Below, piece after piece: positions 36,061 to 54,341 of a DNA stretch of 64,000 nucleotides. Under the pieces are notes generated by a model. It saw nothing but the letters and a program-made list of their open reading frames with translations, was not told where the DNA came from and searched no databases. The DNA comes from Alphaproteobacteria bacterium (GTDB taxonomy: Bacteria > Pseudomonadota > Alphaproteobacteria > SP197), in NCBI GenBank assembly GCA_964291265.2, contig OZ219747.1:2496001-2560000 (forward strand). Direction: 5' to 3'. The position numbers and the translations under genes are program-made. Position 1 is the first letter of the stretch, and every line of letters starts with the position of its first letter.

Positions 36061-38154
36061 CAGGGCTTTTCTTTTGTCGTCCCGGCGCTCGGCGCACGCA
36101 GGATTCTGGGGGTGGACATCCCGTTTTCGCTGTGGCAGTGTGCCGGCATGACGACGCTTGCGACCCCGGATTCCCCTATCGACCTTCGCGAGGTGACGGT
36201 GCGCCCGACCCGTGGCGCACGTGAGCACCGGCTCTGGGATCGTCTGGTCAAGGAGCATCACTACCTGCGGTTTCACGGCATCATCGGCAAGGGCCTGCGC
36301 CATGTCGCCCTGCACGGCGAGACCTGGGTGGCGCTGGTTGGCTGGCAGCCGGGCTCGTTCAAGCTTGCTGCACGCGACCGCTGGATTGGCTGGACTGCGG
36401 AGCAGCAGTTCCGCCGCCTGCATCTGATCGCGAACAATTCCCGGTTCGTCATTCTTGGCCCGAGAGGGGTGCCGAACCTGGCGTCCCGCGTGCTCGGCCT
36501 GAGCCTTCGGCGGCTGTCCGCCGACATCGAGGCCGCGCACGGATACCCAGTGTTCCTCGCGGAGACGTTCGTCGACATCAAGCGCTTCGCCGGAACCTGC
36601 TATCGCGCGGCGAACTGGCGCTCGCTGGGATTGACGCGCGGCTTCGGTCGCAAGCCCGGCGGCGCCGCACGCTTCCGTCACCACGGCCAGCCCAAGGAGA
36701 TCTTCATGTACGAACTGACCGACGGCGCCGCCGAGGCGCTGAGCCGGGACGCGATCCCGGAGAGCTGGAACGCGGAGCAGCACGACCAAGCCGGACCGAT
36801 GGCCGCGTCCGGGCTGCGCAGTCTGTTCGCCTGCCTGGGCGAGGTGCCCGAGTGCCGCAAGCCCCGGGGCAAGCGCTATCCGCTGAGAACCATTCTCGCG
36901 ATCGCCGTCGCAGCCCGGCTCGCCGGCTACCGCGGCGTGAGCGCATTCGCTCAGTTCGCCGCCCTGCTCACCCAGGAACAGCTGGCGGCGGTGGGTGCGT
37001 TCTACAGCCCGTCGAAGAAGCGCTACACGGCGCCCACGTCCACAACCTTCCACAGCATCCTCGCCAACCTGCCGCCCGAGACCCTGGACCACGCCATCGG
37101 CCTGTGGACGGCCCAGCAGGCCGGTGCAGACACACCGCTCGCCATGGACGGCAAGGACATCCGCGGCGCCTCCAAGCAGACCAAAAACGGGCGGCGGATG
37201 ATGGTCGCAGCGGTCGAGCACGGAACCGGCATGGTCCTCGGCCAGGTCGAGGTCGACGCGAAGAGCAACGAGATCCCCGCCGTGCGGGACCTCGCCAGCA
37301 GCATCGACGTCACGGGCCGCATCGTCACCCTGGACGCGATGCACGCTCAGCACGAGACCGCGCAACGGCTTCTCGAGCGCCGCGCCGACTATGTCATCAC
37401 GGCGATCAAGGATAACCAGGAGACCATGCTCGACGACCTCAAGGCCATCGACTTCAAGGGCGCGGCTTCGTTCGAGACACTCGACAAGGGGCACGGACGC
37501 ATCGAGCGCCGCCGCTGTGCCGTGGTCGACATCTCCGGCGCCGAGTGGGACGGCTACGCCGCTCTCCACGGTCGCCACCAAGCCATCCGCATCGAGCGCG
37601 AACGCGAGATCTGCAAGACCAAAGAACGCAGTGTCGAGACCACCTGGTGCCTCACCTCGCTCGCTCCCGAACGCGCCGGACCCGAGATGCTTCTGGCCCT
37701 CGTGCGCGACCACTGGGTCATCGAAAATCGACTCCACTACGTACGCGACTTCACCTACGACGAGGACCGCTGCAGGGTCCATGTGCGCCATCTGCCACGC
37801 AACCTCTCCTGCCTGACAAACGCCGCCATCGCCATCGTGCGCTGCGGCGGACATTTCGACTATATGCCCGAAGCCAACCGGCACTACGCCGCTCGCGCCC
37901 AGGACGCGCTCGACGCTATCCTCATCCCGCCCGGCGGATGAACCTTCGCTCCTGACCCCGCGCCACAAGCCGGGAACGCGCCGCCTGACGGCGCAACAGG
38001 ACAGTTCTGCTCGCACACTCGAAAAAACGTGCCTGCGAGCCCTGATGCACCAGCAGTGCCCACTGAAACCAGCCCACAGTGAACCCGGGCGCCTCAGTCA
38101 TGCCAGGTCCCTGTCACATCAACAATCCACAGGACTGAAAAAAGAATGGTCCTG
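36061..38154 (+). mobile_element. ISAs1-family element, copy 1
   Basis: TIRs CAGGGCTTTTCTTTT / CAGGACCATTCTTTT; 10-bp TSD ATTTCGCGCT at 36051-36060 and 38155-38164. Confidence 0.95.
36148..37941 (+). CDS. DUF4338 (DruA-like)-ISAs1 transposase fusion
   Basis: N-terminal HHYLRF, RDRWIGW, NNSRFVIL, NLASRVL, ETFVD, GTCYRAANW; C-terminal AMDGK, KSNEIPA, VTLDAMHAQ, IKDNQ, HWVIENRLH. Confidence 0.93.
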   Translation: MTTLATPDSPIDLREVTVRPTRGAREHRLWDRLVKEHHYLRFHGIIGKGLRHVALHGETWVALVGWQPGSFKLAARDRWIGWTAEQQFRRLHLIANNSRFVILGPRGVPNLASRVLGLSLRRLSADIEAAHGYPVFLAETFVDIKRFAGTCYRAANWRSLGLTRGFGRKPGGAARFRHHGQPKEIFMYELTDGAAEALSRDAIPESWNAEQHDQAGPMAASGLRSLFACLGEVPECRKPRGKRYPLRTILAIAVAARLAGYRGVSAFAQFAALLTQEQLAAVGAFYSPSKKRYTAPTSTTFHSILANLPPETLDHAIGLWTAQQAGADTPLAMDGKDIRGASKQTKNGRRMMVAAVEHGTGMVLGQVEVDAKSNEIPAVRDLASSIDVTGRIVTLDAMHAQHETAQRLLERRADYVITAIKDNQETMLDDLKAIDFKGAASFETLDKGHGRIERRRCAVVDISGAEWDGYAALHGRHQAIRIEREREICKTKERSVETTWCLTSLAPERAGPEMLLALVRDHWVIENRLHYVRDFTYDEDRCRVHVRHLPRNLSCLTNAAIAIVRCGGHFDYMPEANRHYAARAQDALDAILIPPGG

Positions 38155-38199
38155 ATTTCGCGCTCGACTCGCTGATTCCTTCGCGCTATGGTCGGCCGC

Positions 38200-38781
38200 A
38201 TGGACGACCCTGTTTCGATTCCCAGCGCGCTTTCCTCGCCACAAGGCATGGCGAAGTTGTCGCGGATTCTGGCGCAGCCGGAGGTCTCACGTGCCGAGAT
38301 CGGCCGCAGGGTATGCGACGCTTTCGGCTTTGTTGACTTTCGCGGGTGACCGCAGGTCACGAGTTGCCTTTGTTGCCCTTCGCCGTCTTGAGCGGGCGGG
38401 CAGGATCGTTCTTCCTTCGCCCCGCCGTGGCGGCGGCCGGGGTGCCGTGGCTCGCAGGGAGGTGGCGGTTGCCGAGCCTGTGGGCCTTCCGGCGAGTGCC
38501 GGTGCGGCCTGAGGGCCTTGAGCTTGTCCGGGTCGAGGGATCGGAGCTTCGTCTGATCTTCAACGAGCTGATGGCGTCGGAGCATCCGCGCAGCGCCCGT
38601 CTTCACGTCGGCCGTCAGCTGCGCTACCTGATCGGATCGTCGCATGGCTGGCTCGGCGGGTTCCTGTTTGCTCCGGCGACGCGGGTCCTGGCGGCGCGGG
38701 ATGCCTGGCTTGGCTGGGACGATGCGAGCCGCGAGCGGCATCTCGACGAGGTGATCGGTCTGGCGCGATTCCTGATCCGTC
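38200..38781 (+). pseudogene. 5' part (DUF4338 domain) of the IS4 transposase
   Basis: SRAEIGRRVCDAFGF, NELMASEHP, GRQLRYLIGSSHGWLGG, ARDAWLGWD, ARFLIRP; one internal stop plus frameshifts; continues at 52601. Confidence 0.85.
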
Positions 38782-39036
38782 CGTAGATGCCATCATAACA
38801 CCCCATCTCGCTTCAGGGTTGATTTATAACGATTTTCCATTTCGCCTCCTGTGTCAACGGCGTTTTGCCCCGCGTTTTTGCCCCGGTTCGCGGAAGATCG
38901 TCCTTCCCGATGTCTGCCGGCCCCCATGTCTGGCAAGGTTTTTGCGGGTATTCGGGGTGATGTGTTCTGTGGTTGTCCACGTGCGGTCCGAGGTTCCGCC
39001 TTGCCCTGCGAGCGAGGCGACATGCAGCCTGTGGTT

Positions 39037-39258
39037 CCGGCGGCATGAGCGGGTTGCCGTCCATTGACCACGGTAACGTTACCGATGAGTGCGGCCACCT
39101 TGCCGCCAGCGTTCCCGGGCATGGTAACGTTACCGTGGTCAAGGGGGTTCCAGGTGTCATGTGTCCCGGCGGCATGAGCGGGGCCACCTTGCCGCCCAGC
39201 GTCCCCGGGCATGGTAACGTTACCGTGGTCAAGGTGGTCCCAGGTGCCATGGGTCCCG
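39037..39258. repeat. Palindrome array: GGTAACGTTACC x3 within a ~90-bp tandem unit
   Basis: The 20-mer GGTAACGTTACCGTGGTCAA occurs at 39123-39142 and 39213-39232, and inverted at 39064-39083. Confidence 0.95.
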
Positions 39259-39262
39259 TCCA

Positions 39263-39574
39263 CTAGCCGCGCGGCGGTTCGATGTCCTCAAGGGCCTCGA
39301 TGTCGGCCTCGACGATGATCTGCAGACGTTCTCCGCCAGCCGTGTCGCGCAGGGAGTCGGGGAGACTGTCGAGACAGTCCTGATCATGCTCCTGCCATGC
39401 ACCGAGCTCGGCCACCGCATCGCGCCAGCGTTGCGCACGGGAGCGGCACTCGCAGGACTTTCGCTGGTGGACGGCAGGGATGCCGTATCTCTCGGCCTGC
39501 TCCGGATCACGGGGATGGAACCCGGTCATGCAAGCCGTTGCACGGGCGGCCATGCAGCCTCGCAGGGCGGTCAC
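39263..39574 (-). CDS. Small hypothetical protein (RSR.QRW.DAVAEL...IEPPRG family), possibly decayed
   Basis: Start overlaps the LSR stop; clear homology to 44924-45214. Confidence 0.65.
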   Translation of the reverse strand: MTALRGCMAARATACMTGFHPRDPEQAERYGIPAVHQRKSCECRSRAQRWRDAVAELGAWQEHDQDCLDSLPDSLRDTAGGERLQIIVEADIEALEDIEPPRG

Positions 39575-40587
39575 AACTCGAACTCGCCCTGGTTCGGGTC
39601 CGCGTCGGCGACGCTCCGGCAGCCGGACAGCGCCGCGACGACCCGAGGGGCCTCGAGATCCGCCGCTGCGATGGCCCAGGGCGCCCCGGTGCAGACCTGC
39701 CGTGCGGGCAGGATGCCCGTCCGGATCAGCCGGCGCACGACCGAGGGATCGACGCCGAGCTGCGCCGAGGCCTCGCCGAGGGACAGTTCGCCGCGCTCCT
39801 GGCGTTCGCCCTCGCGGTATCCCGGAATGCCGCGACGGGAACGGAAGACGCGCACCCGAACCCGGTTCCAGCCGTTGCCCTTGGTCGTCTTGCGGCCCAT
39901 GAGGTTGAGAAGCCGGGCCATCTGCTCGTCGGGCAGCTGCCGGGCCAGTCCGGCGACCAGGTCCTCGACCTCCTTGTCGGACGTATAGCGATGCTCGCCG
40001 GTACGGAAGCGCTTCACCTCGATCTCGGTATGGTCGCCGCCGCGCCAGTGCAGAAGCAGGTGCACCGTGTCCTGTCGCATGCTGGCGGTGATCTCCACCA
40101 GGGCCGCGCGCAGGATGTTCTTGCGCAGCTGCGGCGTTGCGGCCTCATGGGACCATGCGCGCTCCAGGTCGGCCCCCAGAGCCAGAAAGGCGTCACGGTC
40201 TGCGCACCCCGCTTCTCGCGCCTCGCGGGTCGCCTCGAGCGCCCGAAGCTGCTCCTCGCGCTCGCAGACCTCGGCCAGGCAGGCCTCCCACCGCGCCGCC
40301 AGGTTGTGGAGAATGTTGTGGTTGCCGGGATCAACCGCGTCGAACTGTGCCTGCGCACGACCGGCCTTGTACCGGGCTTCCTCCAGCGCCGAGGCGGCGA
40401 GTCTGATCCGTGCCGACGTATCGTCGCCGCGCCGCTCGAACGCCTCCAGCGCGGCAGCCACGCCAAGGGGCTGCGCCGCAGCGAGAACGGCCGCGCTCAC
40501 GGCCCCGTCGACCCGTACGCCGCCGAAGCCAATGCAGGTGCTGCCCCCCGTGACGACGTCACCCGGACATTGGTAGCGGTGCGACGT
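39571..40587 (-). pseudogene. Large serine recombinase, C-terminal part
   Basis: SHRYQC...CIGFGGVRVD (Zn ribbon), coiled coil, QFDAVDPGN, LHWRGGDHTE, C-terminal HTH LPARQVCTGAPWAI. Confidence 0.9.
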
Positions 40588-41262
40588 TAAGCGTTTGCGC
40601 GATTTTTGACGTGGATTCCGTCGGTTTTGCTTGAATTGTCTGCTGGTCTGGGGTGATTGCCCCTCGACCGACTTGCAAGAAGTCGGCCGAGGGGCTTGTC
40701 TCCGTGACGGTGAGATCACCGGAGGCCAGTCAATGTCGCACGTTTCCTTCCCGGGTCCCATACTTTCCTGCGCTCATGTCTGGCCTCTCCTTGAGAGGAT
40801 TGATGCGGCCGAGGCGGAGCGCTGCCGCCTGGAGGGATTGTTGATGGCTGCATAGAACGGCGGGATTTCGGCGATTTGCCGCGCTTTGTCAGGGTCGTGT
40901 TTCTTCCCTGTTGTCAGGTCCTATTGTCACGTCCTGTTGTCGTGGTTTGAGTGTTCGGCTGGTTGTCTCCCCGAGCGCCGCCGTCTTTTCCTATTGTCGT
41001 TTTGGTCCGGTTCGGGTTCCGTCGACCTCTGCTTCGGTCTTGGTGACGGTTGCCGGGAGGGTTCCGGTTCCGAGGCACTCGCGGGATTGTTTGTCTTCCC
41101 TGTGGGCGGGTCGCGTTGTCCGGTCCCGGGGCGGCGTTTTTGCCGCCGCCCCGGGTGGATGCTAGATCGGCATCAAGAGAAAGAGCGATGCGATGCCGGG
41201 CGGAGTTGTGACGCCCCCCGGCGCAGCACCCGGACGAGCCGGTCACGGGGGACCGAACTCCC

Positions 41263-41793
41263 GTGTATTGTCGAGCCATTTTGCGTCCGGGTCCACCCCC
41301 GCTCTCGAGACGGATCGTGTGCACGACGGGACGACTGTTCAACTGCAAGCGGTGTCAGCGGCAGGTTGTTCTCTGCCGGTCGTGTGACCGGGGGCATGTG
41401 TATTGCTCCAAGGAGTGCAGGGAATCGTCCCGGATCGAGCGGCGCCGCGCGTCGCGTCGTCGCTACCAGAGCACGCTGAAGGGCCGTGAGACGGGCCGTC
41501 ACCGCCAGCGGCGTTATCGGCTCCGCAAGGCGGAGGAGGCGCGTGCGTTGAAGGCCAGGGCGGCGATGGTTGCCGAGATCATGGGCACGCAGACGTCTGC
41601 TGTGGTGCTGCTTGGCGACGTTCCGGCGGTGTCTGGAGACGCCGGTTCTGAAGAAATCGTTACGGACCACCCTTCCCGACTGCTGCCGACCTCCCTACCT
41701 GCGGTTGTGAAGGCGCGAGAGCGGCGCGAATCGCCGCTTCGGTGCGCCCGGTGCGGACGGGTCGTGACGCATGTGGTGCTGAGGGACCTGTGA
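41263..41793 (+). CDS. Cys-rich Zn-finger, Arg-rich accessory protein upstream of istA
   Basis: CKRC...CRSCDRGHVYCSKEC, basic helix, terminal CARCG; the true start may be ~50 nt downstream. Confidence 0.75.
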   Translation: MYCRAILRPGPPPLSRRIVCTTGRLFNCKRCQRQVVLCRSCDRGHVYCSKECRESSRIERRRASRRRYQSTLKGRETGRHRQRRYRLRKAEEARALKARAAMVAEIMGTQTSAVVLLGDVPAVSGDAGSEEIVTDHPSRLLPTSLPAVVKARERRESPLRCARCGRVVTHVVLRDL

Positions 41794-41825
41794 TGCGGCG
41801 TTGAGGAACCAAAGGGAGGGAGTTC

Positions 41826-43319
41826 ATGGCGATCGACGAGGACACGCGGGCGACGATCGTGCGGCTGTCGCGGGCCGAGGGCTGGGCTGTGGGGACGATT
41901 GCCCGGCATCTCGGCGTGCACCACGGCACGGTGACGCGGGCGCTCAAGGCGTCGGGGCAGGAGCGGCGGCCGCGGGCCAAGCTCATCGACCCCTTCGTTG
42001 CCTTCCTCGGGGAGCGTCTTGAGGCGTCGCCGGACCTTCCGGCCAGCACGCTCTGGCGACAGGTCGTGGCTCTGGGCTACCGCGGCGGCGAGGATCACTT
42101 CCGTCACGACCTGCGCCGCCTCGGGCTGAGGCCGGTGAAGAGGCCCGAGCCGTCGCTGCGGCTGAGCTTCCTTCCGGGCGAGCAGGCGCAGGTTGACTGG
42201 GCCGAGTTCGGGAAGGTCCGCATTGGCCGGGCGGAGCGCAGGCTCATGGGGCTTCTCGTCACCCTCAGCTACTCGCGCCAGACTGTCCTGAGCCTGTTCC
42301 ACGACGCGCGGATGGCCAGCTTCCTGCAAGGCCATGTCGAGGCTTTCGCGGCATTCGGGGGTGTGCCGCGGAGGCTTCTGTACGACAACCTGAAGAGTGC
42401 CGTGGTGACGCGCCGCGGCAAGGCGGTCACCTATCATCCGATGCTGCTCGGCCTCGCGGCCCACTATGCCTTCGAACCGAGCGCCGCCTGGCCCAGGAGC
42501 CCGCAGGAGAAGGGCCGCGTGGAACGCCGTGTGCGCTTCGCGCGCACCGGGTTCTTCGCCGGGCGCGACATCACGGTCCCGCTCGGCGAGCTCAACGCCG
42601 CAGTTCGGGAGTGGTGCTTCGGCGCCGCCGCGGAGCGGCCCTGGCCGGACGACGACAGTCTCCTGGTGCGGGACGCCTTCGCCCGGGAGAGGGAGCACCT
42701 GATCGTCCTTCCCGCCGATCCCTTCCCGCATCACGAGGTCCGCCCGGTGCGCATCGACAAGACCTGCCACGCCCGCTTCGACACCAACGACTACAGCGTT
42801 CCGGGTAGCTTCTCCAAGGCCCTGCTGACGCTGGTCGCCGACCGCGACGAGGTTCGCATCCTCGACGGCGCCGACGAGGTCGCGCGCCACCGACGCTCCT
42901 ACGACAGGAAGCAGGCCGTCACCGATCCGGAGCATGCCAGGGCGATCGCCGCGGGCAAGCGGCGGGCCCGCTCCATGAGCGTCCGCGACCGGGTCCTGCG
43001 CACCGTGCCGCGGGCCGAGGAGATGCTGGCGCGCGCCGGGACCAACGGGCGCAACGTGGCCTCCTGCGCCCGGATGCTGGAGACGCTTCTCAACGCGCAC
43101 GGCGCCGACGCTCTCGACCGGGCTGTCGCCACGGCGCTGGAGCGCGGCTCGTGCCACCCCGAAACCGTGCGCGTCATCATCGAGGAGCGCCGCCGGGAGC
43201 AGGGCCTGCCGCCCCTCAGCATCGCCGACGACGGCCGCGGCGGCCGTGGCACGACGCCGCGGGGGACCGCTCTCGACGCCTACGACAGGCCCGAAGCCAG
43301 CGCCAGGAACAAGACATGA
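41826..43319 (+). CDS. istA: IS21 transposase IstA
   Basis: PGEQAQVDWAEFG, TLSYSR, FGGVPRRLLYDNLKSAV, PQEKGRVER, FDTNDYSVP. Confidence 0.95.
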   Translation: MAIDEDTRATIVRLSRAEGWAVGTIARHLGVHHGTVTRALKASGQERRPRAKLIDPFVAFLGERLEASPDLPASTLWRQVVALGYRGGEDHFRHDLRRLGLRPVKRPEPSLRLSFLPGEQAQVDWAEFGKVRIGRAERRLMGLLVTLSYSRQTVLSLFHDARMASFLQGHVEAFAAFGGVPRRLLYDNLKSAVVTRRGKAVTYHPMLLGLAAHYAFEPSAAWPRSPQEKGRVERRVRFARTGFFAGRDITVPLGELNAAVREWCFGAAAERPWPDDDSLLVRDAFAREREHLIVLPADPFPHHEVRPVRIDKTCHARFDTNDYSVPGSFSKALLTLVADRDEVRILDGADEVARHRRSYDRKQAVTDPEHARAIAAGKRRARSMSVRDRVLRTVPRAEEMLARAGTNGRNVASCARMLETLLNAHGADALDRAVATALERGSCHPETVRVIIEERRREQGLPPLSIADDGRGGRGTTPRGTALDAYDRPEASARNKT

Positions 43320-44017
43320 GCGAGCTCAGGGAGCGTGCCCGGGCGCTCGGCCTCCACGGGCTCGTCGAACGCTGGGACGAGGTCGCCGGGACCGCATGGA
43401 TCGAGGAGGTGGTCAGCGGCGAGGAACAGGCCCGCAGGGCCCGCAGCCACGAGCGCCGCCGCGCCGCGGCGCGGCTGCCCGCCTTCAAGCCCCTGGCGGA
43501 CTTCGACTGGACATGGCCGCGCGACATCAGCCGGGCTCATGTCGAAGCGCTCCTCGGCCTCGGCTTCGTCGACCGTGCGGACAACGCCGTGCTCGTCGGC
43601 GGGCAGGGCACCGGAAAGACCATGATCGCCGCCAACGTGGCTCACCAGGCCCTGCTGCACGGCCACACCGTCCGCTTCGAGAAGGCGCCGGAACTGCTCG
43701 AGGCACTCGCCGAGACCGTCTCGCGCAGCGAGCTGCGCCGCCGCCTCGCGATCCTCGCCAGGCCCCGCCTGCTCGTCCTCGACGAAATCGGCTACGTGAC
43801 CCTCGAAAGCCACCATGCCGACATCCTCTACGCCATCGTCTCGCGGCGCTATCAGCGCCGCTCGACCATGGTCACGACAAGCCTCGCCTTCGCCCAGTGG
43901 GACCGCGTCTTCCCCAGCGCCTCCGGCATCGCCGGCACCGTCGACCGGCTCATGCACGACGCAACCCTCATCTCCATCGACAGCGACTCCTGGCGGCTCA
44001 GGCGTGAAACCCGATAA
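43316..44017 (+). CDS. istB: IS21 helper ATPase IstB
   Basis: LADFDW.WP, GGQGTGKT, LLVLDEIGY, RRYQRRST, VDRLMH; ATGA overlap with istA. Confidence 0.94.
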   Translation: MSELRERARALGLHGLVERWDEVAGTAWIEEVVSGEEQARRARSHERRRAAARLPAFKPLADFDWTWPRDISRAHVEALLGLGFVDRADNAVLVGGQGTGKTMIAANVAHQALLHGHTVRFEKAPELLEALAETVSRSELRRRLAILARPRLLVLDEIGYVTLESHHADILYAIVSRRYQRRSTMVTTSLAFAQWDRVFPSASGIAGTVDRLMHDATLISIDSDSWRLRRETR

Positions 44018-44897
44018 ACCCCGCCGCGTCGACTTCGACGCCGTCAAGCGCATGCCGTTCGAACGCATCGCCGCCGACTGGGGATACGTCCGCGACGAAC
44101 AGGCCTCGACACGCGCCAACCCCGTCCTGTGCGCACCCGGCCTGCCGAAGCTCGTCACGAAGTGCCTCAACAACGGACACTGGGTCTACTTCAACACCCA
44201 GAACGATGAAGACAACGGAACCGTCATCGACTTCATGCTCAACCGCGGACTGGCCTTCGCCGACATCTGCACCCGCTTCGCAGCACCCGACGCCGCGCCA
44301 CGCGACTTCCGCAGCCTCTGGGCCGCGGCAACGCCCGATGCGGCCCCGGACTGGCTCACCGGGCGCGGCATCCTCCCGGAGACCCTCGACACCTGCCGCC
44401 CCCTGGTCCGCCGCGACCACAACGGACGCGTCCTCTTCGCCCATCGCAACAGGAAGCGAAAGCTCACCGGCTTCGAGATCGGTCCCCCCGACGGACCGAA
44501 ACGCTTCGCCACCGGTGGAACCCGAAGCCTGTTCGCCGTCCGCGCCGGAACCGCCGCGGACCTCGAGGCCCTCGTCATCACCGAAAGCGCCGTCGACGCC
44601 CTCAGCCTGGCCCAGATCGACCAATGTCCCCCCAGCCACGCCTTCCTCTCCACCGCCGGGGCACCCTCGCGAAGACAGCACGAACAGATCAGCCTCGCCG
44701 CAAGCAGCCTGCCCAACGTCAGGACCATCGTCCTCGCCCAGGACCACGACGAGGCCGGAGAGCGACAGGCCGAAACCCTGCGCAAAAAGATGAAGCTCCC
44801 CTCCCACGTCTCGTTCCACAGACGCAGACCGCCGGAAAACGCCGACTGGAACGACGTCGTCAACGCCAGGACCAAAGAACCACAAGCGAGATCATGA
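44004..44897 (+). CDS. DUF3991/Toprim primase-like protein
   Basis: HWVYFN...DNGTVIDF N-terminal domain; Toprim motifs ITESAVDALS, FLSTAG, LAQDHDEAG, ADWND; GTG start overlaps istB. Confidence 0.85.
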   Translation: MKPDKPRRVDFDAVKRMPFERIAADWGYVRDEQASTRANPVLCAPGLPKLVTKCLNNGHWVYFNTQNDEDNGTVIDFMLNRGLAFADICTRFAAPDAAPRDFRSLWAAATPDAAPDWLTGRGILPETLDTCRPLVRRDHNGRVLFAHRNRKRKLTGFEIGPPDGPKRFATGGTRSLFAVRAGTAADLEALVITESAVDALSLAQIDQCPPSHAFLSTAGAPSRRQHEQISLAASSLPNVRTIVLAQDHDEAGERQAETLRKKMKLPSHVSFHRRRPPENADWNDVVNARTKEPQARS

Positions 44898-44923
44898 CCA
44901 CGTCCGTCACAAGGAGACCACTC

Positions 44924-45214
44924 ATGCCCCTCACGCCCGCCGAAAAGCAGCGGTGATACCGGGAACGGCGCAAGGCCGGCATCCCTCCCGTCCACACCCC
45001 AAAGCACCGTGACCGGCGCTCGCGACCGCAACGCTGGAACGACGCCGTGGCCGAACTGCGCTCCCTGCAGGACGAATGGCGTGACCACCTCGACAGCATC
45101 CCCGAAAGCCTCCGTGACACGCCTTACGGAGAACGCCTGCAGAGCGTCGCCGATGCCGACATCGAGGCCCTCGAGGACATCGAACCGCCACGCGGCTACG
45201 GAAGGGATACGTGA
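44924..45214 (+). pseudogene. Small basic protein MPLTPAEKQR*YRERRK...RSRPQRWNDAVAEL...IEPPRGYGRDT with a premature TGA
   Basis: AGGAG RBS; single in-frame TGA at 44954; homologous to 39263-39574. Confidence 0.75.
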
Positions 45215-45808
45215 TCCCGCAAGACCCTTGAACGCGGTCACGCGTTACCATCCAGGAATGAGAACGTCTCACCCCGACGCGCCGCTCAGCCTCCCCGGGA
45301 AACACCCGGGCCGTCCAAACGACACCGCATCACGAGACTGCCGCAGCCTCTGAGCCGCAGCGACGCCCGATCCGCCGCCGGGCTGGCTCACAGGTCGCAG
45401 CATCCGCCCGAAAACACTCGACGCCTGCCGCACCCTGCAGGACGAATGGCGTGACCGCCTCGACAGCATCCCCGAAACCCTCCGTGACACGCCTTACGGA
45501 GAACGCCTGCAGAGCGTCGCCGATGCCGACATCGAGGCTCTCGAGGACATCGAACCGCCACGCGGCTACGGAAGGGACACGTAATCTCGCAAGACCCTTG
45601 AACGCGGTCACGCGTTACCATCCAGGAATGAGAACGTCTCACCCCGACGCGCCGCTCAGCCTCCCCGGGAAACCCCCGGGCCGTCCAAACGACACCACAT
45701 CACGAGACTGCCGCAGCCGCTGAGCCGCAGCAACGCCCGATCCGCCGCCGGACTGGCTCACAGGTCGCAGCATCCGCCCGAAAACACTCGACGCCTGCCG
45801 CACCCTGC
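45063..45808 (+). repeat. 370-bp tandem duplication, followed by a decayed primase copy to ~46030
   Basis: 45063-45432 ~ 45433-45802; the second half of each unit resembles 44300-44405; 45700-46030 resembles parts of 44300-44870. Confidence 0.9.
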
Positions 45809-46718
45809 GCCGCCGCAACCGCAACGCACGCAGCCTCTTCGCCCAGCGCAACAGAAACCGTCAGCTCTCCAGCCTCGAGATCGTCCCGCCCGACGAACCA
45901 CGACGAGGACGGAGAACGCCAGAACGAAACCACGCGCAAAAGCCTGAAGCTCCCCTCCCACATCACGTTCCACAAACGCCGAACGCCAGAAAACGCCGAC
46001 CGGAACGACATCGTCAACGTCAATGCAAGACCAATGGGATCCAACAATAGGCAGAAAACAAAGACCGGGCGGACCTTCGTCCAATGCCGCACGTTCTCCT
46101 GTCGTGGTCACCCACTCACACGATCAGCGCCCAAAAGAGCGGTTCTCCGCCAATATCCCGCCGTTCTAAATCGCCGCCGACAGGGATGCCCGCATTGCGG
46201 CGGTCGTCTTCACAGCGCGCGGTATCCGCGCAAGCCGCACGCGCTTGCGCCTGCTCTTCGCGGCGACAACCGCCGTTTCAGCTTCTGCTGTGCTGAGTGC
46301 AGGAGCCGGACGACTCCGCCCTCGGTGCGCTTCTTCGGCCGGAGGTTCCGTGCGGCGCCGGTATACCTGGCTGCGAGCCTCCTGGTTCTGTGCGGCAGTG
46401 TTCCCCTGGCGAAGGCGAGCCGCATGTCTGGCATCCCGGAGAGGACGCTTGGCCGGTGGCGTCGATGGTGGCGGGAGAGGTTCCCGGCGACGGCGGCGTG
46501 GCGCTGGAAGCGTGGCGATCTGGCGGTGGAGGCGGACGAGCCTCCGCTTGTGGCCCTGGTGCGCTTGATGCGCGGCGGATCGTTTCGATCGCGCCTTCTG
46601 CGGAGCCTGGTCTGGCTCATGCCGTGGACCGGCTTCTGCAGGATCGTCGATGGTCTGTCGCCGCCCGCAGAGAGTGCCTGTAGTGCGATGACATAGGACC
46701 GTATAGGGCCTTCCTCCC

Positions 46719-48236
46719 ATGGGACGACGAGGGAGGAAGGCCGTCGTGGTGACGAAGGACGAAGCGGACGCCGGGGACGCCTGGACGCGGCTGCGCTTTG
46801 CGGTGGTTGGCCCGCTGCTGGCGTCGCCGCCGCCGAAGGGGGGTCTGCGGGCCGAGCTTCAACGGCTGTCGCGGCGGGACTGGGAGCATCCCGTCAGGGG
46901 CGGCACGATCCGCTTCTCGGTGTCGACGATCGAGCGCTGGTACTACAAGGCGCGGTCGGCCGACCGGGATCCGGTGCGGGCGCTGCGCCGTCGGGTGCGC
47001 TGCGACGCCGGTCGTGCGCGGAGCGTCTCGCCCCTGCTGATGGCGGCCTTGCGCGACCAGTACAGGGCGCACCCCACGTGGTCGGTTCAGCTCCACCACG
47101 ACAACCTTTGCGCGCTGGTCGAGGCCGACCCTTCGCTCGGGCCGATGCCGTCCTATGCGACGCTGACCCGGGTCATGCGTTCGGCGGGCCTGGAGCGGCG
47201 GCGGCGGCAGCGGAAGTTCGGTGGTGAAGCGGAGCGGCCTGCGGTCGAGGGGCGCGAGGTGCTGAGCTACGAGGTCTCGCGCAGCCATGCCCTGTGGCAC
47301 GCCGACTTCCACCATGCGCGGACCTGTCGCGTGCTGACGCCGTCCGGGGAGTGGAGGACGCCGATCCTGCTCAGCTTCATCGACGACCACTCGCGTCTCG
47401 TCTGCCACATGCAGTGGTATCTCGGGGAGACCACGGAGATCTTCGTTCACGGCATCAGCCAGGCCTTCATGAAGCGAGGGCTGCCGCGGTCCCTTCTGAC
47501 CGACAACGGATCGGCGATGACGGCCGGGGAGGTGCAGGAGGGACTGCACGCCCTCGGCGTGCTGCACCACCACACGCTTGTCCGCAGCCCGTACCAGAAC
47601 GGCAAGCAGGAGGTGCTGTTCGCCCAGGTCGAGGGCCGCCTGATGGCGATGCTCGAGAACGTCGAGACCCTGACCCTGCAGGACCTGAACGACGCCACCG
47701 TCATCTGGGTCGAGCGCGAGTATCACCGCCGCGTACACCGCGAGACGGGGGTCACGCCGCTCAGGCGCGTGATCGACAGCGAGGACGCCTCGCGGACATG
47801 CCCGGACAGCAGCGAACTCCGGGCCGCCTTCCGCATCAAGGTGCGTCGCAAGGTGCGACGCTCCGACGCCACGGTGACGGTGGCGAGTGTCCGCTATCAA
47901 CTGCCGGCGCCGTGGCGCCACCTGCGCGAGATCGACCTGCGCGTCGCCCGCTGGGACCTCTCCGGCATCGACATGGTCGACGGCCGCACCGGGGACCGCA
48001 TCTCGACCCTGCGTCCGGTGGACAAGTCTCGCAACGCCGAGGGGCTCCGCCGCCGGACCGGGCGCCGGAGAGAAGACGACGAGGTGAAGCCACAGACCGG
48101 GCCGGCGCCGCTGCTCAAGCGCCTGCGCGACGAGCAGGACGCCACCGGCCTGCCCCCGGCATGGTTGCCCTTCGGCAAGGATGCCGGCCCGAACGACGAA
48201 GGCAAGGACAACAACGATCAGGGAGACATGTCATGA
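46719..48236 (+). CDS. Mu/TnsB/IS481-like DDE (rve) transposase
   Basis: LWHADFHH, FIDDHSR, RGLPRSLLTDNGSAM, PYQNGKQE, YHRRVHRETGVTP, RKVRRSDATV; start may be GTG ~46746-46749. Confidence 0.92.
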   Translation: MGRRGRKAVVVTKDEADAGDAWTRLRFAVVGPLLASPPPKGGLRAELQRLSRRDWEHPVRGGTIRFSVSTIERWYYKARSADRDPVRALRRRVRCDAGRARSVSPLLMAALRDQYRAHPTWSVQLHHDNLCALVEADPSLGPMPSYATLTRVMRSAGLERRRRQRKFGGEAERPAVEGREVLSYEVSRSHALWHADFHHARTCRVLTPSGEWRTPILLSFIDDHSRLVCHMQWYLGETTEIFVHGISQAFMKRGLPRSLLTDNGSAMTAGEVQEGLHALGVLHHHTLVRSPYQNGKQEVLFAQVEGRLMAMLENVETLTLQDLNDATVIWVEREYHRRVHRETGVTPLRRVIDSEDASRTCPDSSELRAAFRIKVRRKVRRSDATVTVASVRYQLPAPWRHLREIDLRVARWDLSGIDMVDGRTGDRISTLRPVDKSRNAEGLRRRTGRRREDDEVKPQTGPAPLLKRLRDEQDATGLPPAWLPFGKDAGPNDEGKDNNDQGDMS

Positions 48237-49063
48237 ACCGCCAACACCTCACCCATTACGGCCTCAAGTGGAACCCCTTCGCCGCCGACCTGCCGGTCGA
48301 GGGCCTTCTCGCAACGCCCGCGATCGACAGCTTCTGCCGCAGGATCGAGCGTCAGCTCGTGCGCCAGGGCGGCTTCGCCGTGGTGGCCGGCGAGCATGGC
48401 ACCGGCAAGAGCGTCGCCCTGCGCCTGCTCGACGAGCGTCTCGAGACCGCGGAGGGCCTCGACGTCGCCGTGCTCGCCCATCCCTCGTCGAGCACCGCAG
48501 ACTTCTACCGCGAGATGACCGACCTCTTCGGCATCACGACACTGCGCCGGAACCTCTGGGCCGGCTTCAAGGCCCTGCGCGAGTGCTGGCTCACCCATCT
48601 CGAGGACACCCGCATGCGCCCGGTCCTGCTCGTCGACGAGGCCCAGGAGATGCCGCAGGCCGTGCTCACCGAACTGCGCCTGCTCGCCTCCACGGAGTTC
48701 GACTCGCGCGCCATCCTCAGCGTCGTCCTGGCCGGCGACAGCCGCCTGCTCGCCAAGCTGCACAGCCCCGACCTGCAAGCCGTCGCCTCGCGGGTCCGTC
48801 AACGCCTCGTCATGACGCGCTGCGAACCCGACGAACTGCTCCGCCTGCTCGACCACCTGCTCGACGCCGCCGGCAATCCAGGCCTCATGACCCCCGGCCT
48901 CAAGGAGACCCTCGTCGTCCATGCAGACGGCAATCCGCGCTCCCTGACCATCCTCGCCGACAACCTCCTCGCTGTCGCCCTCGACACCGACCGCGAGGTG
49001 CTCGACGAAAAGCTCTTCCTCGAAACCTGGGGCGAACCCATCCCGCCGAGGCGCACACGATGA
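48233..49063 (+). CDS. ExeA/TnsC/MuB-like AAA+ ATPase
   Basis: YGLKWNPF, GEHGTGKS, LLVDEAQEM, VLAGD, SRVRQRL, GNPRSL; ATGA-coupled to the transposase. Confidence 0.92.
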   Translation: MNRQHLTHYGLKWNPFAADLPVEGLLATPAIDSFCRRIERQLVRQGGFAVVAGEHGTGKSVALRLLDERLETAEGLDVAVLAHPSSSTADFYREMTDLFGITTLRRNLWAGFKALRECWLTHLEDTRMRPVLLVDEAQEMPQAVLTELRLLASTEFDSRAILSVVLAGDSRLLAKLHSPDLQAVASRVRQRLVMTRCEPDELLRLLDHLLDAAGNPGLMTPGLKETLVVHADGNPRSLTILADNLLAVALDTDREVLDEKLFLETWGEPIPPRRTR

Positions 49064-50007
49064 TCGGCCTGCCAACCCGCAGCCCGGCCGAACTCGAGGA
49101 CCGGCCAACCGAGGGGCAGTGGCTCGTCGACAGCCTGTGGGGCCGCGAGGCCGTCGGCATCATCGGCGGCGAACCCAAGTGCGGAAAGTCCTTCCTCGCC
49201 CTCGATCTCGCCGTCGCCGTCGCCGCCGGCGTCCCCTGCCTGCGCCGCTTCCCGGCCATGCACCCCGGACCGGTGCTCATGTTCGCCGCCGAGGACGCCG
49301 GCCACATCGTGCGACGCCGCCTCCAGGGCATCGCCGCCGCAGCCGGCGCCGACTTCGACACCCTCGACATCGCCGTCATCGACGTCCCCGCACTGCGCCT
49401 CGACCACCCAACCGACCGCCAGCGCCTGCTCGAGACCGTCGAGCGTCACGGCTCCCGCCTGCTCATCCTCGACCCCCTCGTCCGCCTGCACGGCGTCGAT
49501 GAAAACGCCGTCGCCGAGATCGCGCCGATCCTCGGCTTCCTGCGCGACGTGCAGCGACACTCCGGCGCCGCCGTGCTGCTCGTCCACCACGCACGCAAGA
49601 GCGCCGCCAGCCGGCCCGGACAGGCCCTGCGCGGAAGCAGCGAGCTGCACGCATGGGGCGACAGCAACCTCTACCTGCGGCGCCGCCACGAAACCATCCT
49701 CATGACCGTCGAACACCGCGCCGCACCCGGACTCGCCGATCTCGACATCGAACTCACCGACAGCGGCAACGGAGCCGCCCTGCAGCTGCGGCAACAGGAA
49801 CCCGACGGCGCCAGGCCGCAGCCGCCAACCCCCGAACAGCGCATCGTCCAGGTCCTCGCCGACGCCGATGCCCCGCTCTCGCTGCGCCAGGTCCGGGACC
49901 GCGTCCCAACACGGAACACGACCGTCGCCACGCTTCTAGCCAAGCTCGTCCAGGAAGGACGTGTCGCACAGGACGGTCCCGGTGCCTATCGCGTCGCCAA
50001 AGCCTGA
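49060..50007 (+). CDS. AAA_25 / RepA-like (SF4) helicase with C-terminal wHTH
   Basis: WLVDSLW, GGEPKCGKSF, FAAED, LLILDPL, VHHARK, ALRGSSEL; ATGA-coupled to the ATPase. Confidence 0.88.
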   Translation: MIGLPTRSPAELEDRPTEGQWLVDSLWGREAVGIIGGEPKCGKSFLALDLAVAVAAGVPCLRRFPAMHPGPVLMFAAEDAGHIVRRRLQGIAAAAGADFDTLDIAVIDVPALRLDHPTDRQRLLETVERHGSRLLILDPLVRLHGVDENAVAEIAPILGFLRDVQRHSGAAVLLVHHARKSAASRPGQALRGSSELHAWGDSNLYLRRRHETILMTVEHRAAPGLADLDIELTDSGNGAALQLRQQEPDGARPQPPTPEQRIVQVLADADAPLSLRQVRDRVPTRNTTVATLLAKLVQEGRVAQDGPGAYRVAKA

Positions 50008-50041
50008 CCGCAACAACCAGGCGCAAAACGCCCCGACGCCA

Positions 50042-50106
50042 GGCGGTTCCCGGTTCCCGGTTCCCGTTCACCCTGGGAGTTCAGGTGGGAACCGCCAACG
50101 GGAACC
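50042..50106. repeat. Iteron-like GGTTCCC x3 with two inverted GGGAACC copies
   Basis: GGTTCCC at 50045, 50052, 50059; GGGAACC at 50087, 50100; 10-bp IR GGCGGTTCCC/GGGAACCGCC. Confidence 0.85.
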
Positions 50107-50141
50107 ACCCCCCGTCCACCACGCAGGAGGCTCGACAGACC

Positions 50142-51005
50142 ATGATCCGGTCCTGGGACAATCAGCATCTCGATGACATCCGCAACCAGCCCCTCGAACC
50201 ACTCGCCCTGCGGCTCGGCTACCGAAGAGACCCGCGCGACCCGCGACGCTTCAAGCGCCACGGATCCGTCATCAGCGTCAACCGACAACGCTGGTTCGAC
50301 CACATCACCCAGTCCGGCGGTGGCGGCGCCATCGATCTCGTCATGCATGCACACCGCTGCAGCTTCAACGACGCCGTCGCACTCCTCACCGCACGCTCCG
50401 GCGGCAAGGGGCCGAGAACACCAACGCACTGCGAGGAAACCTGGCACGCCGTACGCCACTACCTCGCCCATGACCGCCGCCTGCCAGACCGTTGCCTGGA
50501 CGCTTGCCGACAGCACGGCCTCGTCGCCGCCGACGAACGCAGAAACGCCGTCTTCACATGCACCAACGCACGAAGAGACGTCTCCGGCGCCGAGATCGTC
50601 GGTACCGTCCCCAACGCAGACGGAAAGCAGTACAGAGCCATGGCGCGTGGATCACGCAAGGCCGCCGGCAGCTTCTGGATCCCCGTGGACCGCTCCATGC
50701 CACGCACCATCATCATCACCGAAAGCGCCATCGACGCCCTCTCCGCATGGTGCCTCAAGGAATGTCGGCAATCCGCTACCGTGATCCTGTCAACCGCCGG
50801 CATCGCTTACCGTCTCCCAACATGGGCCGAAGCCTGGACGCCAAAGCGCATCCTCGTCGCCTTCGACGCCGATCCCGTCGGAGAACAGGCCGCCGAGCGC
50901 CTCGTCAGCCAAGACCCAAGAGCTCTCCGCATGAGACCCCCAGACGGACACAAAGACTGGAACGACGTCCTCAAGGCACGAACACCAGCCTTCCCTTCCA
51001 AGTAG
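50142..51005 (+). CDS. DUF3991/Toprim primase-like protein
   Basis: AGGAGG RBS; WFDH...GGGGAIDLVMH...F.DAV; ITESAIDALS, LSTAG, VAFDADPVG, KDWNDVL. Confidence 0.88.
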   Translation: MIRSWDNQHLDDIRNQPLEPLALRLGYRRDPRDPRRFKRHGSVISVNRQRWFDHITQSGGGGAIDLVMHAHRCSFNDAVALLTARSGGKGPRTPTHCEETWHAVRHYLAHDRRLPDRCLDACRQHGLVAADERRNAVFTCTNARRDVSGAEIVGTVPNADGKQYRAMARGSRKAAGSFWIPVDRSMPRTIIITESAIDALSAWCLKECRQSATVILSTAGIAYRLPTWAEAWTPKRILVAFDADPVGEQAAERLVSQDPRALRMRPPDGHKDWNDVLKARTPAFPSK

Positions 51006-51096
51006 CCTTCAAGAACCGCAAACCAAGCGCAGCGCGAAAGCTCATGTCCACTAAATTGCCCGATCAACGCATCATCAATCTGCCTGAAGGCGCTCA

Positions 51097-52139
51097 GACG
51101 TGCCGTTGTCCGCAATCTGCATCCGCCGGCCGCAGCAGCCGCAGCGCAGAAGGCCGGCCAGAAGCGCCTTGCCGGCCCGCGGCGCCCCCCGGTTCCCCAC
51201 GGTGTTCGCCTCGATCACCCTCCGGTTCCTCTCGTACTCGTCCCAGCCGATGTAGCCCTCGTGGCGGTCGCGCAACAGAACCGACCATGCGGCCTCGGGC
51301 TTCATGATCCCTCGGCGTACCTTCCTGGTCCCGCCAGCGTCAACCGTCACCTCCTGGCGCCGGCGCCCGTACACATAGGCGCCGGCGTAGAGCGGGTTGC
51401 TGAGCATCAAGGCCAGCGTCGAGTTCTGCGGCACCCGCCACGCGATCCCGCCACCCTTGGGGTCGCGAACCGGGATCCTGATGTCGCGCTTGCGGAACCA
51501 GAGATGGACCTGACGGATGCTGCGCAGTTCGCGGAACTTCCGGAACACCAGGTCGATCGCGTCGCGCTGGTGCTGGTCCGGCGTCTTCTCGATGCCGTGA
51601 CGGTCGACCTTCTCGAAGCCGGCCGGCAGGTGCAGGAACAACTCCCCGCGCTCGGCCAGCGCCTGGCGGCTCTCCAGGGACCGCTGGCGGAACACCGCAA
51701 GCTCCATGTCCGCAAACTGGCCCTTGAGACCCAGAAAGGCCCGGTCGTCGACCATCGCCGGATCGTGGATCCGCTCGCGGTCGCCGACCAGGCAGCCGAC
51801 GACGGCGCAGATCTCCAGAAGCGCGTGCCAGTCCCGACCATTGCGCGCCAGACGCGAGGCCTCAAGGGCCAGGACAAGGCCGACCGTGCCGCTGCACACG
51901 GCCTGCAGAAGGCGCTCGAAGCCCGGACGCCTCACCCCGCCGCCCGAAACGCCAAGATCGTCGTCGATCACCTCGACCTTCGCAAAGCCCAGCCCCCGGG
52001 CATGATCCTCGAGGGCGTACTGCAGCTTGCGCCGCTCGACGTGGTTGCGCACCTGCATCTCGCTCGACTGACGGATGTACACGATCGCCGAGCGCGCCAG
52101 GTGGCCGGCGGTCAGCCGCGCGTCACGCATCACCGTCAT
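51097..52139 (-). pseudogene. Large serine recombinase, N-terminal part (684 aa when rejoined)
   Basis: AIVYIRQSS, VIDDDLGVSG, RPGFERL, EASRLARN, LSNPLYAGAYVYG, HEGYI, LLAGLLRCGCCGRRM. Confidence 0.93.
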
Positions 52140-52211
52140 CGCCCGCCCCCTCCCGCAACGCCGCCATCACATGTTCGATCAGCGCCGCGACTGCCGGCTG
52201 CAGGGCCCGCC

Positions 52212-52595
52212 TCAGGTGCGGCCTGTGCCAGGCCAGTGGCGTCTCCTGGAACAGGTCCGTCCGGAACACCAGCGAGATTGTCCTTCATCGAGTTCCTCCT
52301 CTGTCTTCCGCAAGGAACCCAGGAAGGATGTCGCGAGATCATGCAGGTCCGCCAGCGCCTCCAGGGACAGCCTCGGTGCCGCGCGAAGCTCGTAGCGCGC
52401 GGACTCCGGCGACGTCATCCATTCCGCAATCCGGTGCCGCGTACCCTGGGAATCAACGACTACGAGAACCGGACGACCGTGAAGCGACCGCCTCACCCGG
52501 CATGTCACGCGCTGCCCGGCCAGAGGATGAAAGCGGTAATGCACCGTGATCTCCGCGCCAGGCGCAATGTGGGGATTCGCCAGGTAGCCAGCCAT
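52212..52595 (-). CDS. Small hypothetical protein upstream of the LSR (VHYRFHPLAG motif)
   Basis: ITVHYRFHPLAGQ...IAEWMT...PRLSLEALADL; the ATG overlaps the att core. Confidence 0.6.
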   Translation of the reverse strand: MAGYLANPHIAPGAEITVHYRFHPLAGQRVTCRVRRSLHGRPVLVVVDSQGTRHRIAEWMTSPESARYELRAAPRLSLEALADLHDLATSFLGSLRKTEEELDEGQSRWCSGRTCSRRRHWPGTGRT

Positions 52596-52600
52596 CCGTC

Positions 52601-54341
52601 TGTGTACGTTATCTTGCGTCGCGGGTCCTGGGCATGGCGGCCCGGCGCTTAGGTGGTGACTTTGCGGCGGCCTATGGCATCCGTCCGGTTCTGGCCCTTG
52701 ACCTTTGTCGCGCCGGAGTATCGGGGCAGTTGCTTCCTGGCGGCCGGCTGGCGCTGTGTCGGTGAGACCACCGGGCGCCGGCTTCGTGACGGCGTGGCGG
52801 AACCGGCGAAGCGCATCCTTCTGCTGCCTCTGGCCTCGGACTGGGACACCTGCCTGGAGGCGCGGCGCGTCCTGGCGCCCGGGGACGGCCTTGACAGCGC
52901 GGCTTGGGCAGAGAACGAATTCGGCGCCGCGCCCTCAGGAGACGCCCGCCTGACGCAGCGGCTTGTGCGCAGTGCCGAGGTTCAGGCCCGGTCACCGACG
53001 AAGACATTCTTCGCTGCGGCGGCTGGCTGCGGAGCGACGGTGAAGGGATACGACAGGATGATCGAGCATCCGGACTACGACGCGGTCTGTGCGTCCACCA
53101 TCATCGGGGGGCATCGCGAACGGACCCTGCGGCGGATGCAGGGCCAGGCGCTGTCGCTTCTGGTGCAGGACGGCACGGACCTCAACTTCGCGACCCGCCA
53201 GGGTTGCGAAGGCCTCGGGATGATCGGCCGCAACACGGGGTCTTCGGGGACGTCGGGCCTGCACCTGCACACGACCTTTGCCGTGAGCGGCGACGGGGTT
53301 CCCCTCGGCGTTGTCAACCTTGAGTTCGACGCCCCGGACGGCGGGGACGACCGGGATCGTCCGGTGGAGGAGCGCAAGACCGGACGGTGGCTGCGCGGCC
53401 TTCGCCACAGCATCGCGGCGGCGAAGGAACTGGACGGGGTGAAGGCCGTGGCGGTGATGGACCGCGAAGGGGACGCGTTCGATGTGCTCCACGAACACCG
53501 TGCGGCGGGCTGCCGCCGTCTGGCGCTGCTGGTGCGGGCGCGTCATGACCGCAGCTTCGGCCGCGGCCGGCCCAAGCTGTTCGAGCGTGTGCGCACGGCG
53601 CCGGAAGGCGGACAGTTCTCCCTCACGGTGGAGCGGCTGTCGGGGCGACGTTCGACAGGGGCGCAGAAGGCCTCCGTCGGGCGGGCGAGGCGCCAGGCGC
53701 AGGTGAGCCTGCGCTGGCTGACACTCGAGATCCCGCCGCCTGCACACACAAGGGCGCGCTTCGGAGCGCAGCCGGTGGTGCTGACCGCGATCCATGCCGG
53801 GGAGGTGGACAGGCCCGACGACGGGTCACAACCGGTGTCGTGGACCCTGCTCACGACCCTGCCTGTCACGAGCCTGCACCAAGCCCGCGAGGTGGTGCGG
53901 TTCTACGGGTTGAGGTGGTGGATCGAGGACTGGCACAGGATCCTCAAGTCGGGCTGCAAGGTGGAGACGATCGCGCATCGAACCGGGGGACGCATCGAAC
54001 GGGCCGTGGCCATCAACGCGGTGATTGCCTGGCGCATCGCCGCTCTCACCCACCTGGCGCGAACGGAACCGGAGCTTCCGGCAAGGACCGCATTCACCGA
54101 CATCGAACTGGCGCTGCTGAAAGACTTCGCGCATGTCCGCAAGCTGCCGCCGCCTGAGGATCTCTCAGCGGCATTCCGCCTCGTGGCGACGATGGGCGGA
54201 GACCTGAACCGCAGCAAGGACGGCCCGCCCGGCGCGGAGATCACCTGGAACGGCCAGGCTGCGCTGTCGTTCACGGCGTGGATGCTGGGTCACAGTGTCG
54301 ATGCCGGGGACGACAGCGCCGTGCGGCAACACATCAGCTAG
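52601..54341 (+). pseudogene. 3' part of the DUF4338-IS4 (Tn5-like) transposase
   Basis: LASRVLG, GSCFLAAGWRCVGET, WAENEFG...GDARL, VQDGTDLN, VMDREGD, WTLLTT, IEDWHRILKSGC. Confidence 0.9.

Follow-up and report, generated by a model that had tools for sequence, protein, structure and literature searches.

A Tn6049-type transposon whose predicted helicase, repeat array and primase likely serve as its own compact replication origin

Transposons that move by replicative or copy-out routes are generally assumed to rely on the replication forks of their host. We analyzed a 64,000-nucleotide stretch of DNA from an Alphaproteobacteria bacterium (contig OZ219747.1, positions 2,496,001 to 2,560,000 of the forward strand; hereafter the window), in which positions 40588-51096 are occupied by a transposon, A, that is interrupted by a second element, B, and carries genes for a predicted helicase and a predicted primase on either side of a repeat array. 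The nearest named relative of A is Tn6049 of Cupriavidus metallidurans CH34 and Pseudomonas aeruginosa pHS87a, which shares the three core genes of A and their order. Descriptions of Tn6049 give it a length of 3.5 kb, 12 copies, repeats of 12 bp, a duplication of 4 bp and an ATPase of secretion type, in passages that give no mechanism (PMC2864759; PMC4739549). When the ends are aligned, both elements have short terminal repeats that are alike and contain two GATG motifs; duplications of 4-5 bp and a multicopy state are further common traits (PMC2864759, PMC4739549). Tn6049 ends in an open reading frame (ORF) of 71 amino acids, whereas in A the helicase gene, the array and the primase gene occupy that place. 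The short, imperfect terminal repeats of the Tn6049 group (TG..CA with a 4-5 bp duplication) are found in A, although its left end here begins with TA; the 71-amino-acid ORF and the 3.5-kb size are not.

Other described systems resemble parts of A. The Rep proteins of Staphylococcus aureus pathogenicity islands (SaPIs) are presented, in the portions of the reports consulted, as self-loading ATPases with a C-terminal winged helix and with opposed penta- or hexanucleotide iterons just downstream (PMC9371898; bioRxiv 10.64898/2026.10.17.759575). Such an ATPase, followed directly 3' of its gene by opposed iterons in the range of 5-6 nucleotides (nt) and accompanied by a neighboring primase, is common to the SaPI module and A (PMC9371898; bioRxiv 10.64898/2026.10.17.759575). 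According to the same portions, however, SaPI Reps are AAA+ helicases of superfamilies 3 and 6 (SF3/SF6) that read bases by the wing, whereas the protein of A is RepA-like with a RecA fold and shows covariation at the recognition helix; moreover, a SaPI is an integrase-based phage satellite, whereas the module of A resides in a DDE transposon. The closest solved relative of the helicase of A (E 2.6e-13) is RepA of the RSF1010 (IncQ) RepA/RepB'/RepC replicon. TnGBS integrative and conjugative elements are reported, in the part of the source seen, to use a DDE transposase and to have a circular form that replicates like a plasmid (PMC3942029). They combine a Mutator-like transposase with a plasmid replicase and conjugation genes (PMC3942029), whereas A, at 5 kb, has an rve/IS481-like transposase, an ATPase, a helicase and a primase, and no transfer genes. 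The IS21 family, for which that part of the source also reports a circular intermediate (PMC3942029), shares with A a transposase paired with an AAA+ ATPase and TG..CA-type ends with repeated sites. A literature search, with subscription journals and ISfinder outside its scope, gave no match for the transposon architecture of A.

A is a real, recently active transposon of the little-studied Tn6049 type. The 10.5-kb span is made up of two nested mobile elements, the outer A (40588-40838 plus 46183-51096) and the inner B, so that the size of ~5.2 kb given in a preliminary description of the window holds for A once the 5,344 bp of B are subtracted, and does not hold for the span as it stands. The genome contains six full copies of A, four of them uninterrupted at 5,160 bp, which is the length of A without B, and two with B inside. 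Each of the six is flanked by its own 5-bp target duplication; at the copy in the window this is GACGT (40583-40587 and 51097-51101), as had been described. Also as described, removal of the unit together with one GACGT left an open serine recombinase frame. At 684 amino acids it has the length of a second, uninterrupted allele in the same genome (G000:C2:3297985), and the empty joint, with the recombinase lacking A, is present in public contigs. The TG..CA ends that had been proposed were found in multi-copy relatives (TGAG or TGAA..CTCA), whereas A itself has TA..CA. Helicase-only relatives measure 4.35-4.43 kb and primase-bearing ones 5.16-5.19 kb. A promoter scan of an intact copy of A gave 0 sites, and no RNA data set was listed as containing the element, which is silent on expression. 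In a separate multi-copy relative of 8.08 kb (L075-L077:9790-13510), a 3.7-kb insert interrupts the helicase gene, and separate copies keep their own duplications. The features of A are as follows.

40583..40587, plus strand: left 5-bp target duplication, GACGT (copy comparison; empty joint in public contigs)
40588..40680, plus strand: left end, TAAGCG..., a variant of the family's TGAGCG (boundary identical in six copies)
40733..40838, plus strand: 5' part of a DUF6431-like Cys-rich/helix-turn-helix (HTH) gene (204 amino acids), split by B (intact in other copies)
46188..46696, plus strand: 3' part of the DUF6431-like gene (intact in other copies)
46719..48236, plus strand: DDE (rve) transposase, 505 amino acids (Pfam; 47.5-50% to the Tn6049 transposase)
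48233..49063, plus strand: ExeA-like AAA_22 ATPase, 276 amino acids (Pfam; 53% to the Tn6049 ATPase)
49060..50007, plus strand: RepA-like AAA_25 predicted helicase (RecA fold), 315 amino acids, C-terminal winged helix at ~258-312 (RSF1010 RepA, 1g8y, E 2.6e-13)
50044..50107, no strand: inverted repeat array, candidate origin; GTTCC at 50046, 50053 and 50060, a 23-nt spacer, GGAAC at 50088 and 50101
50142..51005, plus strand: DUF3991/Toprim predicted primase, 287 amino acids (Pfam; T7 gp4 primase, 1nui, profile E 5.3e-5)
51040..51096, plus strand: right end, ..CGCTCA; a pair of GATG-type motifs spaced by ~24 nt, shared with Tn6049 (end alignment)
51097..51101, plus strand: right 5-bp target duplication, GACGT (copy comparison)

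The five genes first listed for the unit were all recovered by Pfam, and the ATGA overlaps said to couple three of them lie at 48233 and 49060. Judged by its genes, the core of A is of Tn6049 type, consisting of a small Cys/HTH gene, a DDE transposase and an ExeA-like ATPase; the first three genes are 46%, 50% and 53% identical to those of the C. metallidurans element, with the order unchanged. The preliminary view that no named family has this architecture is not supported as regards this core (46-53% identity, same gene order). The first gene product lies nearest to DUF6431 clusters in the Atlas (0.96-0.97), an assignment that serves as a lead, the family covering 32-44% of the members of the matched clusters. 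In the transposase, D196, D262 and E298 are invariant in the alignment. A profile search of solved structures with this protein returned only retroviral-type integrase cores and no MuA or TnsB. Pfam gave no Mu-transpos_C match for it, although the transposases of a second family, described below, do match; the IS481-family profile NF033577 scored 110 bits against a cut-off of 224, and by the NCBIfam profiles the transposase and ATPase do not score as IstA and IstB. No TnsA, TniQ/TnsD or resolvase gene lies within the ends of A; the absence of TniQ and relaxase genes had been noted previously and holds. Of the features of Mu and Tn7, a MuA/TnsB-type transposase was not detected in A, a TnsA, TniQ, TnsD or resolvase gene is missing, and in place of cointegrates and a duplication fixed at 5 bp the family shows simple insertions with 4 or 5 bp; the label "Mu/Tn7-like" given to A earlier applies only loosely.

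The predicted helicase has RSF1010 RepA (1g8y) as its best solved match (E 2.6e-13), and the SF4 (superfamily 4) motif set (Walker A, catalytic Glu, Walker B, H3 His and RGSS) aligns to that protein; the corresponding residues K43, E78, D138, H176-H177 and R191-S194 are invariant in 22 close sequences. The structural model of the protein is poor overall (predicted local distance difference test score, pLDDT, 58), but the blocks of the winged helix are well predicted (pLDDT 68-88). The winged helix (49831-50000) also weakly matches Z-DNA-binding Zalpha domains (E 0.057), which probably reflects a shared fold only. For transposase, ATPase, helicase and primase, in that order, the ratio of nonsynonymous to synonymous substitution rates (dN/dS) against L003 was 0.27, 0.31, 0.26 and 0.35, and in a second pair 0.26, 0.49, 0.30 and 0.33. 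The data support the view that purifying selection acts on the proteins of A, in which the catalytic motifs are retained.

The position of the helicase gene was surveyed from both sides. Among the best 80 of at least 570 confirmed transposase-anchored loci, from 20 genomes, the helicase gene lies directly behind the ATPase gene in every case (80/80), although some copies are truncated or interrupted. A helicase-anchored search of 1,050 evenly drawn genomes from three phyla matched 10 genomes besides the centres; in eight of these the gene is directly behind an ExeA-type ATPase gene and in one it is 0.7 kb behind (9/10 together), while the remaining match (33-37% identity) is part of a longer protein in an unrelated context. 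The linkage holds down to 42-45% identity. The synteny anticipated in the preliminary description is thereby upheld for the helicase; for the primase it extends to 19 of the 80 closest loci only. Several of the helicase-linked loci belong to a second transposase family, 25-27% alike to that of A, and in a tree of helicase cores the elements of this family nest among those of the first, one of them in the starred clade that contains the protein of A. The module has therefore been swapped between transposon families with its position kept. Transposase and helicase trees do disagree, then, as would be expected of chance cargo, but through such swaps rather than random capture. Taken together, the gene neighborhoods support the interpretation that these transposons have the helicase and array as conserved components and not as chance cargo. 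Matches to the helicase are abundant (68 in G405; 452 clusters at 50% identity, E up to 1e-30). Among 72,556 plasmids, in contrast, none of the 42 matching records covers 80% of the helicase, so that no full-length relative was found there, and five matches in viral contigs were all weak.

Directly 3' of the helicase gene of A are three GTTCC repeats, a 23-nt spacer and two GGAAC repeats, confirming the iteron-like repeats seen at first. Two or three GTTCC and two GGAAC make up the form of the array behind the helicase gene, and among 5000 windows drawn at random from genomes, 2 contained such an array. We compared arrays and winged helices in 33 chosen representative loci, one per family per genome, of which 30 had both in readable form; of the other three, one has an apparent frameshift and two have no visible array. 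The first residue of the predicted recognition helix, which is N286 in A, tracks the repeat core in 30 of 30 loci: GGAAC goes with N or H (18 loci), GTAAC with P or T (9) and GAAAC with A or M (3). The change extends to every repeat on the two arms. On one arm of some arrays, only a single strict 5-mer is scored. In L079 and L093 the array is behind the primase gene rather than the helicase gene. We considered the array as a primase operator and rejected this, because the array is kept where there is no primase and can sit 3' of the primase gene (L079, L093).

The predicted primase of A has invariant acidic Toprim residues, E194, D198, D242 and D244, that align to T7 gp4; no CHC2 match and no conserved Cys set were detected for an N-terminal zinc-binding domain. 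A different primase with an intact CHC2 finger occupies the same slot in G050 and G158. Where the primase is lacking, the slot often contains a conserved hairpin-rich block (9/17 primase-less and 0/16 primase-bearing representatives), located after the array (L012:10421-10560 and relatives) and found in both transposase families. Rfam gave 0 matches on 7 loci, and the block matches none of its families. The motifs GAAGCGG and TAGCG in the block may point to a role as a primosome assembly site (pas) or a single-strand origin (sso); a literature search gave no support, and we treat this as a lead only. In a survey of primase neighborhoods covering the best 80 of 393 metagenome loci, four of the closest relatives follow the helicase gene and 12 are directly behind istB, and of 42 further loci 13 adjoin relaxase, coupling-protein, Rep, Par or topoisomerase genes. 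Plasmid and transposon contexts are mixed in a quick primase tree with long branches (5 changes). This pattern suggests that primases were recruited several separate times from plasmid-type stock into ATPase-assisted transposons, the deep joins of the tree being unsure.

The products of insertion bear on the mechanism. We examined 65 family copies, reading the flanks by eye, and in the 61 with both ends seen, 36 had a 5-bp duplication, 17 a 4-bp duplication and eight none, i.e., 53 of 61 were simple insertions, as were all six copies of A in this genome. Simple insertions and the lack of an encoded resolvase argue against Mu-like cointegrates and fit the pasting in of a circle, a route reported for IS21 and for TnGBS (PMC3942029); of the two options initially offered, an excised circle or the strand-transfer fork, the latter is accordingly disfavored.

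We propose that the helicase, array and primase likely cooperate as a compact origin of the element's own, from which it is copied. The transposase and ATPase would join the ends of the element and later insert a circular intermediate, as in IS21-type elements. The winged helix of the helicase would bind the 5-mers on both arms and load itself as SaPI Reps do, and the primase, or a hairpin signal read by the host in the same slot of primase-less relatives, would prime synthesis by host polymerase. The circle would be released or multiplied without dependence on helicase loading by the host, a benefit to the element but not something it strictly requires. In our estimate, the chances are about even that the helicase binds and opens the array and, with the primase, starts the synthesis that releases or multiplies a circular copy. 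We offer more tentatively, as somewhat short of even, a wider proposal: that there is a class of IS-sized transposons with a swappable kit comprising a self-loading RepA-type helicase with a one-residue repeat code, an origin, and a primase or host priming signal; that this kit drives their own transposition replication independently of host helicase loading; and that ATPase-assisted DDE transposons (two Tn6049-like families and IS21) have recruited primases repeatedly.

A number of observations weigh against an origin of this kind. In a fold search with the helicase model, RecA, RAD51 and DnaB rank alike and a helicase is not singled out. The module is optional: Tn6049 has no helicase, array or primase, and in the passages available it reaches 12 copies all the same (PMC2864759). 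A transposase-anchored search of 750 drawn genomes matched six, with the helicase gene present in two, absent in three and beyond a contig end in one; it is also absent from the two plasmid copies L001 and L002. The primase (19/80 closest loci, 9 genomes) is more often absent than present. The 30/30 agreement between residue and repeat may amount to only three or four independent changes, because the sequences for the winged helix and the array lie side by side and pass on as one. The spacer is short and GC-rich, with 23 nt and 39% AT in A and, in most relatives, 22-28 nt and 19-44% AT. SaPI origins, in contrast, span ~300 bp and have an AT-rich core, according to the portions of the reports consulted, whereas the candidate origin of A has ~65 bp and none. 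Finally, the end-joined circles and raised coverage that had been anticipated were not seen. No end-to-end joint was present among the contig joints listed (15 of 19) and no circle junction in this genome; in five multi-copy genomes, eight pattern matches proved to be seven unrelated sequences and one ordinary left end. The small, mostly-element contigs L051 and L052 have no terminal repeat. In run X1, contig depth was 314 for A, ~2000 for B and 104 for the two-copy recombinase gene, all ~52 per integrated copy, so that no amplification of A shows; contig depth is a weak measure, contigs drop rare forms, and X1 may be the source sample.

In a different role, the module would turn the circle, once excised, into a short-lived mini-plasmid able to persist on entering a new, distantly related host, and would have no part in copy-out within a genome. 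RSF1010 RepA, the closest solved relative of the helicase, belongs to a plasmid RepA/RepB'/RepC set, as the part of the source seen describes it (PMC8567376), distant primase relatives adjoin relaxases, coupling proteins and Rep genes, Tn6049 spreads within one genome without the module, and elements binned in Chloroflexota and Actinomycetota are 84-86% DNA-identical to alphaproteobacterial ones. These cross-phylum copies, however, are on 3-7 kb contigs and possibly misbinned, A has no relaxase or packaging gene, the 72,556 plasmids contain no full-length relative of the helicase, and the contigs show no excess depth; we consider such a role unlikely. Slightly less probable, in our judgment, is that the RepA-like ATPase binds the array for a step other than origin firing; it might regulate itself, strip the transpososome, or act on the first strand-transfer intermediate by branch migration or resolution. 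The high rank of RAD51/RadA-type proteins, equal to that of DnaB in the fold search, the lack of an AT-rich melting region in the array and the frequent absence of the primase are consistent with this, but two unlike primases recur directly behind the RepA-like gene, the array after the primase gene in L079 and L093 can be no primase operator, and the best match by sequence is a replicative helicase.

Replicative transposition as in Mu, with the helicase and primase building a fork on the Shapiro intermediate to yield cointegrates, seems highly improbable. It could account for a DDE transposase with an AAA+ ATPase and 5-bp duplications, for the absence of a TnsA-like gene and for the unmatched flanks of 8 of 61 family copies; against it are the simple insertions (53/61 and 6/6), the missing resolvase, a duplication length that varies between 4 and 5 bp and the absence of a MuA/TnsB match. 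We give the smallest chance to a remnant of a selfish replicon that hitch-hikes on transposons without benefit to them. Purifying selection on the module equals that on the transposase, the helicase gene has a fixed position in which it overlaps or closely follows the ATPase gene, and no more than 1 of the 10 unbiased matches to its clade, the distant longer protein, lies apart from such transposons; these points argue against a passenger. In its favor, helicases of second-family transposons nest among those of the first, and the primase tree, a quick one with long branches, mixes plasmid and transposon contexts (5 changes). Separately, we rejected a role of the module in making up for host functions that are lacking, as priA and dnaG are intact in this genome.

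The remaining features of this region concern the inner element B, which splits the first, DUF6431-like gene of A, and the recombinase gene into which A inserted.

40839..46182, plus strand: element B, IS21-like, 5,344 bp, TG..CA ends, own 5-bp duplication GGGAT (inverted repeats 40853-40887/46134-46168)
41826..43319, plus strand: IstA transposase of B (NF033546, 222.8 bits, above cut-off)
43316..44017, plus strand: IstB ATPase of B (PF01695, E 3.6e-50)
44004..44897, plus strand: DUF3991/Toprim primase-like gene of B (33% to the primase of A over 179 amino acids)
51097..52139 (5' part) and 39571-40582 (3' part), minus strand: interrupted large serine recombinase (Pfam, copy comparison)

IstA, IstB and the TG..CA ends place B in the IS21 family, although its IstB falls slightly below the cut-off of NF038214 (191 against 200). 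The genome has 30 end-to-end copies of B, 26 of them with a duplication of at least 5 bp. B is one case of primase recruitment of the kind discussed above, located inside A. IS21-like elements with a Toprim primase gene directly behind istB and no helicase gene also occur in unrelated metagenomes (L099, L107, L140, L149, L154, L162, L164-L168 and L174). B is also inserted into itself, and two copies of B at G000:C2:4237410-4258495, in the same genome, share one outer 5-bp duplication over ~21 kb, which suggests a composite transposon. In the right arm of B (44913-45808), 370 bp are duplicated in tandem; the arm contains remnants of a primase gene and a small ORF resembling the ORF at 39263-39574, behind the recombinase gene of the enclosing element. 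From 38155 to 54341, the window consists of four nested layers: a transposase gene, a serine-recombinase element, A and B. The outermost is a Tn5-like transposase gene with a DruA domain, of which other copies have the part at 38155-38782 joined to that from 52592 onward; it is split by the serine-recombinase element (~38770-52593), which is itself split by A. An N-terminal Druantia DruA-like domain (PF14236) is present on two unrelated transposase types, at 36019-37941 (E 1e-20) and 38346-38786 (E 3.5e-12).

Sequence comparison makes A a variant of a named but little-studied kind of transposon, that of Tn6049, and gives good support to its putative origin module. An element of 4.4-5.2 kb that does bring an initiator-helicase, an origin and a primase with it would show that transposons of small size are able to initiate replication on their own. 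Such elements are abundant, as the helicase matches in G405 and the 452 clusters indicate, and Tn6049, the helicase-only elements and those with both helicase and primase provide natural sets with and without the module for asking which step needs replication. The 65-bp candidate origin comes with a predicted residue-to-base rule that could be tested by one mutation.

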